From: Chitinophagales bacterium
GTDB taxonomy: Bacteria > Bacillota > Syntrophomonadia > Syntrophomonadales > DTU052
Assembly (NCBI GenBank): GCA_050259035.1
Contig: JBLMZW010000188.1
Span: 58,886-122,885 of the forward strand
Length of the DNA stretch: 64,000 bases
Direction of reading: 5' to 3'
Shown: in pieces, positions 33,393 through 37,010 of the stretch
How the letters are laid out: each line of letters starts with the position of its first letter
Numbering within the stretch: the first letter of the stretch is position 1
Position numbers and translations under genes: made by a program
Notes under the pieces: model-generated
Database searches by the model: none
Told to the model about the DNA's origin: nothing
Seen by the model: only the letters and a program-made list of their open reading frames with translations

Positions 33393-36300
33393 ATGGGGAG
33401 AGCCATAGTGGAAATTAAGCTACTGATTGATCAATTGGGGTGTACCATCGATGAAGATCTCACCGGAATCGTGATCGATGATGTAAATGTGTTGCCTCAA
33501 TCCGCTACCTGGTTAATTAATGTCAGAGTTAACCGACTGGTTTCAGGCCAGGTGTGGGCAATAGTAGAGGAAGCAGTTGTTGCTTCTTTCGAAGAAGTAA
33601 TAACTGTAAAAATAGTAGCATTACCTAACAATAAAAGGGAGTTTATAAGTTGGATCTTGACTGAAAGAAGCGAAGAGATTTACCGACTTGTAAATGGAGT
33701 AGGTATTGATTTTACAGATACCTACAAGGCTGAGGTTGACGACGAAGACCTCGTTTTTTGTTTTCTTGATAGGGAAAGCTGGCATAAAGCGATAGATAAG
33801 GAAATTAGCAGTGCTGTAGAAAACTGGTTGTTTGAATCTTACCGAATTCAGGTTCTAGTCAAAACCACTTGTCAGGAAGACTTGATAGAAAAATCCTGCT
33901 GTGAGTTTGTGCCTGCGGTGGAGACTCCGTTGATAGTAATCGAGCCCATGGCCAAAGGCAGAGGTAAAAAGAATGAAAACAATCCTAAACAGCCAGCCGC
34001 AAATTCCGCTAAATTAAGCATCATTTCCGACTTGCAAGAAGGGGAAAGAAATATTCGTATTGAAGGTAAAGTCTTCAATATAGTGGCACGTGACATGAAA
34101 GATGGCCGCAAGGTTACTTCGTATTATGTAACAGACTACTCCGACAGTATTACTGTAAAAATGTTTGAACCGCCACGATTTGATAAGGATAGTTGGATAA
34201 GTGCTCGGGGTGAAATCAGGTATGACAGTTTTGAGAAGGATTTGGCTTTGTTTGCCGATTACATTGAACCAGTTGAATCTAAGACCCGGCGGGATGAGGC
34301 AACGAATAAACGAGTAGAACTTCATCTCCACACTATGATGAGCACGATGGATGCCGTAACCGATTTAGAAGAACTGATGGCGACCGCAAAAGATATGGGA
34401 CACGAATCGGTTGCCATTACTGATCACGGGACAGTTCAAGCATTTCCTACCGCGTATAAGCTGTCAAAGCAGTATGGGATCAAAGTGATTTACGGTGTGG
34501 AAGGATATCTGTTTGATGGACGAAAACAGGACCGTTCCTATCATATTGTCTTACTGGCAGCTACCCAGTCAGGCTTAAAAAATCTATACCAATTAGTGAG
34601 TTCATCATACATAAACAATTTTTATCGTACACCAAGGATTTCCCGCGAAGAGTTGATTAGGTTAAGGGATGGAATCATGCTTGGCACAGCCTGCGAACGA
34701 GGTGAATTAGTAAGGGCATACTTGGGTGGGGCAGATGATTCTGAATTAGAAAGAATCGCAAATTTCTATGATTATCTTGAAATTCAGCCACTAGGGAACA
34801 ATGAATTTTTAATCAGGGACAAGACTCTAAGTTCCCGAGAAGAGTTGATGAATATGAATCAAAAAATTATCGAGTTGGGAAAAAAGATTGGCAAGCCAGT
34901 AGTTGCCACTGGTGATGTACATTTTCTTGAACCACATCACGAAGTATATCGCAGAATTCTGCAAGCGGGAAAAGGTTTCGAGGATTCTGAGAGCCAGGCC
35001 CCTTTATACTACCGGACAACTGAGGAAATGATGCAAGAGTTTTCTTATTTGGACGAAAAAACTGCGTTGGATGTGGTAGTGAACAATCCACGCCTTATAG
35101 TTGATAAATGTGAAAAAATCAAACCGGTTCCAGACGGTAGATTTTCACCCCAGATTGACAACGCGGCAGAGAAACTTACAGATATGGTCTGGTCCCGGGC
35201 TGTTGCAATATATAGTGATCCTCTACCAAAAATAGTAGAAGAACGCTTAAAGAAAGAATTGGACTCGATAACTGGTAATGGATTCAGCGAATTGTATTTA
35301 ATAGCTGTGGAACTGGTTAAGAAGAGTAATGATGATGGGTATATTGTTGGTTCGCGTGGATCGGTTGGATCTTCCCTGGTGGCTTGCCTTGCAGGTATTA
35401 CTGAGGTTAACCCACTTATACCTCATTATGTTTGCCGATGTGGTTATACAAGGTTTATCGACAACAGTGAAGCTTCCTGCGGAGCTGATTTGCCGCGGAT
35501 GGACTGCCCCGAATGTGGGCTGGAGCTTAAAAGAGACGGATTTGATATTCCATTTGAAACATTTCTCGGCTTTGAAGGGGACAAGGTGCCTGACATCGAT
35601 CTTAACTTTTCAAGTGATTACCAGCCAAAAGCTCATAGATTTGTAGAGGAATTGTTTGGTAAAGACCATGTATTCCGATCTGGAACCATATCAACTATTG
35701 GAGAGAAGACAGCTTATGGGTTTGTATTAAAATATGAAGAGCAGTTTGGCAACCGATTCAGAAAGGTTGAAAGAGAACGGTTAGTCAAGGGCATTAATGG
35801 GGTTAGAAGAACTACTGGACAACATCCCGGTGGTTTGATAATTGTACCCAATGAATATGATATCTACGATTTTTGCCCGGTCCAACACCCTGCTGATGAT
35901 GCTAAGTCTGGTGTTATTACAACTCATTTCGATTACGATGCCTTAAAAGGAAGGTTAGAAAAACTCGACATACTCGGCCATGACGGCCCGACGGTTATTA
36001 AAAATTTAGAGGATTTAACCGGCGTAGCAGCCTCTACTATCTCATTGAATGAAACCCGGACAATGGCATTATTCTCTGGCGTTGAACCATTAAGCGTTAG
36101 TAGTAAAGATATCGAATCCGATGTGGGTACCTATGGAATACCGGAATTTGGGACTAGGTTTGTACGCCAAATGCTTGAAGTTACCAGGCCCAAAACGCTT
36201 TCGGAACTTATACGCATATGCGGATTGGCCCACGGAACCAATGTCTGGGCCAATAATGCTCATGACCTTATTAAAGATAATGTTGCTAGTCTAAATCAGG

Positions 36301-37010
36301 TAATAGCGACACGGGATGACATTATGATATATCTTATTGATTTGGGCTTTGATAAACATGAGGCTTTCAACATCATGGAAAAGGTTCGTGGGGGGAAAGC
36401 TCTTTCACCGGAACAGACTAATAAGATGAGAGAAAAAGGTGTACCAGAATGGTACATAGATTCCTGTCATAAGATAGGGTATGTATTCCCCAAAGCACAT
36501 GCCGTAGCATATGTAATGCTATCGTTTCGAATAGCATATTACAAGGTCTATCACCCACTGGCTTTTTACGCAAGTTTCTTTTCCATTCGGGCCTCAGACT
36601 TTGATGATGTAATAGTCCAAGGATATGAAGAGGTCAAGCGCAGATTAAAAGAGATAGATAAAATGGGGCAAGGAGCTTCACCAAAGGACAAAAACCTGGT
36701 GCCAATCCTTGAGCTTGCTTTGGAAATGTATGCCCGGGGATATGATTTCTATCCGGTTGATTTGCATCAATCCGATTCAGAAGAATTTCAGCTTCGTTCC
36801 AACGGCCTATTGCTCCCCTTTTCTGCTTTATCGGGGGTAGGGATAAACGCAGCCCGGAATATCACGGCCGCCCGTTCCCATGGTGAGTTTCAGTCAGTAG
36901 AAGATCTTCAGGAAAGGGCTCATTTAAATCGAAACATAATTGATATTTTAGAGCATAGTGGTTGTCTGACCGGCTTGGCTCAAACCGCTCAGTTTAGCCT
37001 CTTCAATTGA
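33393..37010 (+). CDS. polC: DNA polymerase III PolC-type alpha subunit, atypical: no DEDD exonuclease insertion
   Basis: PolC-specific features in order:
- OB fold (IRIEGKVFNIVARDMKDGRKVTSYYVTDYSDSITVKMF)
- PHP motifs (RVELHLHTMMSTMD, ITDHG, GDVHF)
- PolC Zn-finger insert (CRCGYTRF...CPECG)
- palm motif PDIDLNFS
- C-terminal clamp motif QFSLF

Only about 10 residues (YLFDGRKQDRSY) lie where the roughly 200-aa exonuclease domain normally sits. The start may be GTG 33408. Confidence 0.85.
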   Translation: MGRAIVEIKLLIDQLGCTIDEDLTGIVIDDVNVLPQSATWLINVRVNRLVSGQVWAIVEEAVVASFEEVITVKIVALPNNKREFISWILTERSEEIYRLVNGVGIDFTDTYKAEVDDEDLVFCFLDRESWHKAIDKEISSAVENWLFESYRIQVLVKTTCQEDLIEKSCCEFVPAVETPLIVIEPMAKGRGKKNENNPKQPAANSAKLSIISDLQEGERNIRIEGKVFNIVARDMKDGRKVTSYYVTDYSDSITVKMFEPPRFDKDSWISARGEIRYDSFEKDLALFADYIEPVESKTRRDEATNKRVELHLHTMMSTMDAVTDLEELMATAKDMGHESVAITDHGTVQAFPTAYKLSKQYGIKVIYGVEGYLFDGRKQDRSYHIVLLAATQSGLKNLYQLVSSSYINNFYRTPRISREELIRLRDGIMLGTACERGELVRAYLGGADDSELERIANFYDYLEIQPLGNNEFLIRDKTLSSREELMNMNQKIIELGKKIGKPVVATGDVHFLEPHHEVYRRILQAGKGFEDSESQAPLYYRTTEEMMQEFSYLDEKTALDVVVNNPRLIVDKCEKIKPVPDGRFSPQIDNAAEKLTDMVWSRAVAIYSDPLPKIVEERLKKELDSITGNGFSELYLIAVELVKKSNDDGYIVGSRGSVGSSLVACLAGITEVNPLIPHYVCRCGYTRFIDNSEASCGADLPRMDCPECGLELKRDGFDIPFETFLGFEGDKVPDIDLNFSSDYQPKAHRFVEELFGKDHVFRSGTISTIGEKTAYGFVLKYEEQFGNRFRKVERERLVKGINGVRRTTGQHPGGLIIVPNEYDIYDFCPVQHPADDAKSGVITTHFDYDALKGRLEKLDILGHDGPTVIKNLEDLTGVAASTISLNETRTMALFSGVEPLSVSSKDIESDVGTYGIPEFGTRFVRQMLEVTRPKTLSELIRICGLAHGTNVWANNAHDLIKDNVASLNQVIATRDDIMIYLIDLGFDKHEAFNIMEKVRGGKALSPEQTNKMREKGVPEWYIDSCHKIGYVFPKAHAVAYVMLSFRIAYYKVYHPLAFYASFFSIRASDFDDVIVQGYEEVKRRLKEIDKMGQGASPKDKNLVPILELALEMYARGYDFYPVDLHQSDSEEFQLRSNGLLLPFSALSGVGINAARNITAARSHGEFQSVEDLQERAHLNRNIIDILEHSGCLTGLAQTAQFSLFN

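Follow-up and report, generated by a model that had tools for sequence, protein, structure and literature searches.

The built-in DEDD exonuclease is a textbook hallmark of PolC and is assumed to be the source of replication fidelity in the Firmicutes. In canonical PolC (Bacillus subtilis; G. kaustophilus, structure 3f2b; structure 9qpc) this domain of about 200 residues is located between ligands 5 and 6 of the PHP domain. The 3f2b structure is that of an engineered delta-Exo construct of the G. kaustophilus (Gka) enzyme, and is thus a laboratory analogue of the natural protein described here. Natural PolCs of this form were described by Timinskas, Balvociute, Timinskas and Venclovas (NAR 2014), who found that 6% of PolCs have no Exo insertion (PMC3919608). 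Almost all of them belong to the Clostridia and Negativicutes, in which PolC is paired with DnaE1, and they occur almost only where this pairing is accompanied by a conserved PHP metal site (PMC3919608).

The other branch of the C family, DnaE, is represented by M. tuberculosis DnaE1 (5lew) and the Thermus Pol III alpha subunit (2hpi). Both resemble the present protein in having a trinuclear HHDHEHCDH metal site and no fused DEDD domain, but their OB fold is C-terminal and they have neither the zinc finger nor the N-terminal domain of PolC. The PHP domain's 3'-5' exonuclease activity has been demonstrated for Thermus and Mycobacterium DnaE1, and is predicted for the protein described here. In the literature searched, PHP exonuclease activity is not reported for any PolC, and no biochemical work on a natural Exo-less PolC was found.

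The polC gene analysed here is situated in a 64 kb stretch of DNA (the window). The genome comes from run SRR24085918, in which the contig measures at least 170 kb. Its product is, with near certainty, the PolC replicase of the organism, orthologous, encoded at the primary locus and belonging by identity and architecture to the natural Exo-less clostridial-type class. The main reading, that a primary-locus Exo-less PolC is proofread by its own PHP domain, has a probability of roughly 0.6.

Genomic locus

The position of the gene is defined by two conserved groups of neighbors:

30893..32626, + strand, proS, the upstream synteny anchor (Pfam tRNA-synt_2b, tRNA_edit, HGTP_anticodon)
33393..37010, + strand, polC, 1205 aa from ATG 33393, or, likelier, 1200 aa from GTG 33408
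41389..46180, + strand, rimP, nusA, (ylxR, L7Ae-family gene) and infB, the downstream synteny anchor

The genes follow one another as in Bacillus: rpsB-tsf-pyrH-frr-uppS-cdsA-dxr-rseP-ispG-proS-polC-rimP-nusA-infB-...-truB-ribF-rpsO-pnp. The assignment of the gene to the primary proS...polC...rimP-nusA-infB locus, made earlier from the sequence alone, is therefore upheld as far as the conserved order is concerned, but neither proS nor rimP is an immediate neighbor of polC. An MgtC-ACT gene separates it from proS, and SIMPL, rubrerythrin-like, permease and TPR genes separate it from rimP. The order rimP-nusA-ylxR-L7Ae-infB is also found at the relatives' loci L074, L075 and L076. In Neomoorella thermoacetica and Heliorestis convoluta, whose genomes are complete, and in a third genome, a MAG, an Exo-less polC occupies the same locus.

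The nearest named relatives belong to the Syntrophomonadaceae, Moorella and the heliobacteria. Two sporulation genes, dpaA and dpaB, are present in the window, which shows the core synteny of Firmicutes. It contains no dnaE and no rRNA gene, and scanning it for Rfam families and for tRNAs gave no matches.

Domain organization of the protein

The likely start codon is GTG 33408; the Shine-Dalgarno sequence GGGAGA lies 6 nt upstream of it. The product predicted by gene callers has the corresponding length of 1200 aa. The residue numbers used here are those of the 1205 aa reading frame, which is uninterrupted over all its codons and in which the catalytic and binding motifs are all intact. The frame scores far above the cut-offs of both NCBIfam PolC equivalog profiles, with 1425.8 bits for NF001688 (cut-off 873) and 1317.5 bits for TIGR01405 (cut-off 1043.45). 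Both profiles align in two stretches; residues 378-1204 are paired with profile positions 610-1444. The Pfam domains PHP, DNA_pol3_alpha, finger, HHH_6 and OB are all matched, and the best PDB sequence matches are 3f2b and 9qpc. These matches bear out the sequence-only reading of the gene as a PolC frame of 1205 aa, and the landmarks that it listed (the zinc finger, PDIDLNFS and QFSLF) are found at residues 681-708, at residue 733 and at the C-terminus, respectively. The domains and motifs are as follows:

33393..34007, + strand, N-terminal region, presumed PolC N-terminal domain from its position (aa 1-205)
34056..34274, + strand, OB fold (PF01336, E 4.4e-5, residues 222-294), which aligns to the OB of 3f2b and 9qpc
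34317..34502, + strand, PHP part 1 (aa 309-370), ligands 1-5: H311, H313, D320, H345, E370
34503..34541, + strand, junction hairpin GYLFDGRKQDRSY (aa 371-383), at the site of the DEDD exonuclease (~200 aa) of canonical PolC
34542..35072, + strand, PHP part 2 (aa 384-560), ligands 6-9: H384, C434, D508, H510
35172..36428, + strand, Pol3 core with palm, thumb and fingers (aa 594-1012; PF07733, E 1.1e-56; PF17657, E 2.6e-21)
35433..35516, + strand, PolC-specific zinc finger CRCG...CPEC (aa 681-708), found by regular expression and aligned to the Gka PolC zinc finger
35589..35612, + strand, palm catalytic motif PDIDLNFS (aa 733-740), found by alignment and nearly invariant in homologues
36744..36983, + strand, tandem helix-hairpin-helix (aa 1118-1197; PF14579, E 2.9e-12)
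36990..37004, + strand, C-terminal beta-clamp-binding motif QFSLF (aa 1200-1204); in homologues, Q(L/I/C)xLF stands at the same place

The N-terminal region gives only a weak match to PF14480 (E 0.08, residues 8-73), and the homologues bear PF14480 and/or PF11490 in this region. The N-terminal domain of PolC is poorly conserved (PMC3919608). The OB fold precedes the PHP domain, which begins at residue 309 and is spanned by PF02811 over residues 309-459.

Outside the exonuclease, the domains and their order, the motifs and the genomic locus are the same as in canonical PolC, to which the protein is about 50% identical across the common regions. Because the polymerase core, OB fold, zinc finger, helix-hairpin-helix region and clamp-binding tail are intact, the protein should function as a normal clamp-tethered replicase.

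The missing exonuclease

The alignment to the full-length PolC of structure 9qpc is interrupted at the junction. Residues 210-376 match residues 256-431 of the chain and residues 375-1204 match residues 632-1471, so that about 200 residues are absent from the present protein. The junction (nt 34482-34562) reads KVIYGVE(370)-GYLFDGRKQDRSY-H(384)IVLLAA. A hairpin of 13 residues between ligands E370 and H384 thus takes the place of the DEDD insert. This is the measured length of the short link between the KVIYG and LLA strands to which the sequence-only reading had drawn attention.

The RNase_T family (PF00929) has no match in the frame even at E<=1 in the Pfam search, and a regular expression for D-x-E-T finds nothing in the protein. 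Neither the frame nor the window contains Exo motifs I, II or III or an RNase_T domain. When 19 PolC Exo domains were compared with the 64 kb window by tblastn, no Exo-coding sequence emerged (best E 0.067), and an HMM search in six frames gave none either (best E 1.2). A hidden or frame-shifted Exo domain is ruled out by these four kinds of search. They agree with what had been read from the letters: no DEDD domain within the frame, no D-x-E-T-T-G motif, and a continuous frame with no exonuclease encoded in any other.

The junction could in principle be an artefact, if some 600 nt had been lost in assembly, or the gene could be a decaying paralogue that accompanies a full-length polC elsewhere. 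The 64 kb are the visible part of the genome, and Timinskas et al. did report one additional Exo-less PolC copy in the Thermotogae (PMC3919608). Both forms of this explanation are nevertheless very improbable. A Logan contig that was assembled independently agrees with the window at every one of 15,166 nt and reproduces the junction. The same junction of 26-31 aa, conserved in length and sequence, is present in 101 of the 120 best database homologues. These two observations rule out an assembly deletion, which may be regarded as effectively refuted, and they answer both the concern about a segment lost in assembly and the proposed survey of relatives. Against a degenerate copy stand the 1205 codons without interruption, the full set of catalytic and binding motifs, and the primary locus, conserved here and in the complete genomes of relatives. 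A stray paralogue is ruled out as far as synteny shows, in the window and in three relatives.

The distance between ligands 5 and 6 separates the two forms of PolC sharply: it measures 12-21 aa in the 100 Exo-less sequences compared, and 212-218 aa in the 32 that are Exo+. The DnaQ-like DEDD domain has been cleanly removed from the loop between these ligands; the PHP barrel is intact, and a short beta-hairpin remains.

The protein has two properties of the Exo-less subclass, no Exo insertion and an intact PHP metal site. It shares with the Exo-less clostridial PolCs the NTD-OB-PHP-Pol3-HhH architecture and the conserved PHP metal site (PMC3919608), but its lineage is uncultured, and the closest relative in the databases is only 58% identical to it. 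The novelty implied when the gene was first noticed is not supported, as the class was described in 2014 (PMC3919608) and is abundant in current databases. The protein is a further, fairly divergent example of this known class and introduces no new principle.

The PHP metal site

The nine metal ligands of the PHP domain, mapped to the positions given above, form the canonical series HHDHEHCDH, and the impression that the metal site is intact proves correct. The series is intact in the present protein and in 120 of 120 homologues, and the ligands are invariant in all 101 Exo-less homologues, which are 47-58% identical to it. They are equally conserved in the Exo+ clostridial PolCs (19 of 19, and more in a second comparison), so their conservation is not specific to the Exo-less state. 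An 'active PHP' is recognized by the nine-residue signature HHDHEH[C/H]DH (PMC12926913), and this signature is found complete here.

The enzyme of G. kaustophilus is different. Its ligand 8 is Asn, and PHP exonuclease activity is undetected in it (PMC3666897; PMC5636811). The corresponding residue is Asp in the present protein and Asn in one Bacilli PolC compared.

The PHP segment was modelled with AF2 (pLDDT 92.3), and the model shows the junction as a tight hairpin, two strands joined by a turn of 8 residues. In Foldseek comparisons the model matches 3f2b with a TMq of 0.86 and 9qpc with a TMq of 0.92. The predicted structure thus superposes on both of these PolC structures. The PHP folds of 5lew and 2hpi are matched with a TMq of 0.72-0.77.

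Possible mechanisms of proofreading

Three sources of fidelity were envisaged from the letters: a separate exonuclease acting in trans, the PHP domain itself, and relaxed fidelity. This is the right set of options, and the ligands of the PHP domain are intact. Proofreading by the PHP domain of PolC itself would be the most likely mechanism, with odds slightly in its favor, because the ligands are canonical, as in the proven PHP exonucleases and unlike those of the inactive Geobacillus PolC. The PHP domain of an Exo-less PolC would then itself proofread, and DnaE1, the partner to be expected in genomes of this kind, may add a PHP exonuclease of its own. The length of the loop between ligands 5 and 6 counts against PHP proofreading: in Mtb DnaE1, where it borders the substrate groove of the PHP domain, it has 29 residues, compared with 13 here. 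In Taq it has 18. The mutator effect of the C669Y substitution in C. thermocellum, too, could have a structural rather than a catalytic cause.

The proofreading activity might instead be supplied in trans, by a separate DnaQ-like (DEDDh) exonuclease docked on the PHP domain of PolC or on the clamp. A precedent exists in E. coli, where epsilon docks on DnaE. Proofreading in trans is made feasible by the finding that the Exo domain of B. subtilis PolC is able to act in trans on DnaE3, and bacterial proteomes contain on average more than three stand-alone DnaQ homologues (PMC12926913). However, the 64 kb window contains no stand-alone dnaQ and no DEDD-coding sequence at all, and three relatives have no RNase_T gene within 10 kb on either side of their Exo-less polC. 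PHP ligands tend to be lost where an epsilon homologue is present (PMC3666897), and here all the ligands are kept. A trans-acting exonuclease is considered unlikely.

Even less probable is a PolC that functions here without proofreading, its fidelity being relaxed or else rescued downstream, either through mismatch repair or because DnaE1 corrects the errors of PolC with its PHP exonuclease. That a PolC can function in this way follows from the engineered delta-Exo Gka enzyme, which polymerizes without detectable exonuclease (PMC3666897, PMC5636811). Against this, the ligands do not vary in any of the 101 Exo-less homologues, which points to selection on a catalytic metal site. The Exo-less state is also ancient and has been stable across several families, which is hard to square with a strong mutator.

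A more specific form of proofreading by the PHP domain can be proposed. The PHP domain may be the sole proofreader of PolC here, and the DEDD domain may have been lost repeatedly since clostridial PolCs carry two redundant proofreaders; the chances of this proposal are about even. In a rough PolC tree, the Exo-less/Exo+ state changes at least three times. If the PHP domain is indeed the sole proofreader, the protein is a natural PolC counterpart of mycobacterial DnaE1, and the Exo-less PolCs are a natural system for demonstrating PHP proofreading in PolC.

Natural Exo-less PolCs show that a PolC with an intact PHP metal site can do without the DEDD domain, and they offer a clean test of whether the PHP domain of PolC can proofread. 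They are relevant to antibiotics targeted at PolC and to mutator engineering in industrial Clostridia and acetogens, of which Neomoorella thermoacetica is an example with the same Exo-less form of the enzyme.

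The polC gene and its product

The open reading frame at 33393..37010 (+, 1205 codons) scores well above the cut-offs of both NCBIfam PolC equivalog models, NF001688 (1425.8 bits, cut-off 873) and TIGR01405 (1317.5 bits, cut-off 1043). Both models match it in two stretches, the second of which places residues 378-1204 on profile positions 610-1444. The OB fold, PHP, Pol3 core, finger and HhH domains are recognized by Pfam, and the landmarks named in the sequence-only reading are all found: the zinc finger CRCG...CPEC at residues 681-708, the palm motif PDIDLNFS at residue 733 and the clamp-binding QFSLF at the C-terminus. 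The length of 1205 residues given there holds for the reading frame, but the protein is probably 1200 residues long and starts at GTG 33408 (database entry P0001, as gene callers give), because this codon is preceded by GGGAGA at 33396-33401 and no Shine-Dalgarno sequence stands ahead of ATG 33393.

Absence of the exonuclease domain

The DEDD exonuclease, which had been claimed to be missing from the protein and from the other frames around the junction, was found neither in the ORF nor elsewhere in the window. The protein has no Pfam match to RNase_T (PF00929) even at E<=1 and no D-x-E-T motif. Searches of the whole 64 kb with 19 PolC Exo domains (tblastn, best E 0.067) and with profile HMMs in six frames (best E 1.2) did not detect a DEDD exonuclease. 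The junction reads KVIYGVE370-GYLFDGRKQDRSY-H384IVLLAA (nt 34482-34562) in a single continuous frame. On the full-length PolC structure 9qpc, residues 210-376 match chain positions 256-431 and residues 375-1204 match 632-1471, so that about 200 residues are absent at one point. The top single-stretch structure match is 3f2b, the Geobacillus kaustophilus PolC from which the exonuclease was removed by design, whereas the present protein lacks it naturally. AlphaFold2 models residues 296-600 with confidence (pLDDT 92.3, pTM 0.88), and in this model the junction consists of two strands joined by an 8-residue turn. The modelled PHP segment superposes on 3f2b with a TMq of 0.86 over 308 columns and on 9qpc with a TMq of 0.92 over 507 columns, the surplus 200 being the Exo domain. 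The observation of a PolC without the insert (Exo-less) is confirmed.

An assembly artefact is ruled out by an identical Logan contig (run SRR24085918; 0 mismatches in 15,166 nt against window 23408-38573) and by the relatives: a short junction of 26-31 residues with conserved sequence, roughly K-x-I-Y-G-x-E-x-Y-L-x-x-E-D-K-K-E-R-P-Y-H, is kept in 101 of the 120 best database homologues, and an insert of about 220 residues occupies this point in only 19.

Exo-less PolCs are not a new phenomenon, since the class was described in 2014 by Timinskas et al. (PMC3919608). The variants were confined to Clostridia and Negativicutes, except for one extra copy in Thermotogae, and in these two groups the partner of PolC is DnaE1, not DnaE3 (PMC3919608). 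Many examples are present in current databases. The PolC described here is a new, fairly divergent addition, its closest database relative sharing 58% identity.

Gene neighbourhood

The gene is surrounded by a classical Firmicutes core block.

Gene order around polC in the window
Upstream (+): flagellar/che genes, sigD, rpsB, tsf, pyrH, frr, uppS, cdsA, dxr, rseP, ispG, proS, MgtC-ACT gene, polC
Between polC and rimP (+, permease -): SIMPL, rubrerythrin-like, amino-acid permease and TPR genes
Downstream (+): rimP, nusA, infB, nrnA, truB, ribF, rpsO, pnp and more
End of block (+): dapB, dpaA, dpaB, asd, dapA, rnj

That the gene is a degenerate paralogue of another polC is very unlikely, because the Exo-less polC genes of Neomoorella thermoacetica (CP017237, complete genome), Heliorestis convoluta (CP045875, complete genome) and MAG GCA_050258755 occupy the same proS-polC-rimP-nusA-infB locus. 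On synteny within the 64-kb window it is the orthologous primary polC, as had been proposed.

There is a 4-nt overlap between the MgtC-ACT gene (32623-33288) and the stop codon of proS. Both this insertion (9250-9915 in the MAG sequence, L076) and the minus-strand permease after polC recur in GCA_050258755.1; Moorella and Heliorestis have neither at the polC locus. The NCBI label of this MAG, 'Solirubrobacterales', is doubtful given its Firmicutes synteny, and the genome is probably mislabelled or mis-binned. The infB gene of Heliorestis (18930-21733 in its comparison sequence, L075) is predicted as two adjacent ORFs, one of 325 aa with the IF2_N domain only and one of 590 aa with the GTPase. 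The gene may be truly split, or the break may come from a frameshift or a sequencing error.

PHP metal site and proofreading

The PHP metal ligands, which had appeared intact in the sequence-only reading, are all nine present (H311, H313, D320, H345, E370, H384, C434, D508 and H510; HHDHEHCDH), as they are in 120 of 120 homologues. Thermus Pol III alpha and M. tuberculosis DnaE1, whose PHP domains are proven exonucleases, carry the same signature (PMC5636811), and a 2026 survey by the group of Timinskas et al. rates a PHP domain 'active' if HHDHEH[C/H]DH is present (PMC12926913). Ligand 8 is Asp (D508) here but Asn (N743) in Geobacillus PolC, in whose delta-Exo form no exonuclease activity was detected (PMC3666897; PMC5636811). 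It is Asp in each clostridial-type PolC examined and in four PolCs of MAGs labelled Bacilli (L031, L036, L062, L063). In the one Paenibacillus PolC checked, that of P. sanfengchensis (L068), it is Asn as in Geobacillus, consistent with published work that describes the PHP domain of PolC + DnaE3 systems as often inactive.

For most Clostridia the survey counts three candidates for proofreading, namely PHP in PolC, PHP in DnaE1 and DnaQ in PolC (PMC12926913). Most likely, clostridial PolCs carry two proofreaders, DEDD and PHP, of which DEDD would be dispensable, and editing in the Exo-less lineages would fall to the PHP site. Against PHP editing, the nine ligands are equally conserved in Exo+ relatives (those with the insert), and the mutator effect of the PolC mutation C669Y in C. 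thermocellum may be structural. Moreover, the loop between ligands 5 and 6, which lines the substrate groove in M. tuberculosis DnaE1, has 29 aa there and only 13 aa here. A rival explanation is proofreading by a DnaQ homologue acting in trans; no such homologue is linked to polC in the 64-kb window or at the loci of Neomoorella, Heliorestis and GCA_050258755. Another is that PolC does not proofread and that compensation occurs downstream. The sequence-only reading, which had named the PHP domain, a trans-acting DnaQ-like protein and relaxed fidelity, was sound in its interpretation. Our literature search found no biochemical characterisation of any natural Exo-less PolC. The question of interest, whether any PolC PHP domain proofreads, belongs to the whole Exo-less class.

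Possible losses of the exonuclease

A neighbour-joining tree of 132 PolCs (996 shared columns, rooted on a Bacilli sequence), rough and without support values, requires at least three changes between presence and absence of Exo. The present PolC lies within an Exo-less clade of 14-16 members, with Syntrophomonadaceae-type sequences as sister, and the Exo+ PolCs of Desulfotomaculum and Thermincola are nested among Exo-less groups. The PolC of gut Eubacterium sp. CAG:180 (L002; HF993132.1 9305-13123, stop-to-stop ORF of 1273 aa) is also Exo-less and has a different, longer junction, YFIDDIKEPDKTYKELRSYH. Its placement among Exo+ Ruminococcus-type PolCs suggests an independent loss. Several independent losses among PolCs are a lead, as the tree has no support values.

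Other features of the window

The strand bias is extreme over 1-64000: essentially all real genes lie on the + strand, the permease at 38622..40112 being the sole clear exception, and GC skew is positive in each 2 kb bin. A leading-strand gene bias is associated with PolC-using Firmicutes, and the window is in line with it. The chemotaxis set (4093-5295 and 17805-18925) is of the Bacillus type, with FliY (a CheC-FliN fusion), CheC, CheD, CheB and a CheA fused to a C-terminal CheW domain. Together with SigD and the sporulation genes dpaA and dpaB (58313..59998), it predicts a motile spore-former. A PilZ-domain, YcgR-like brake, encoded at 13529..14173, belongs to the chemotaxis set, as does the sigma factor SigD. 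Between a FapA-like gene and rpsB lies an ORF of 157 aa (21481-21954) with a sub-threshold match to DUF6115 (E 9e-5, 23 bits, cut-off 27) and a faint HTH signal. Between an M16 peptidase gene and dapB (56620-57349), the gap is filled by genes for a dUTPase (148 aa) and a PRC-barrel YlmC/YmxH-like protein (114 aa). The listed ORFs share about 60 nt, and one of the two therefore probably has a start codon further downstream.
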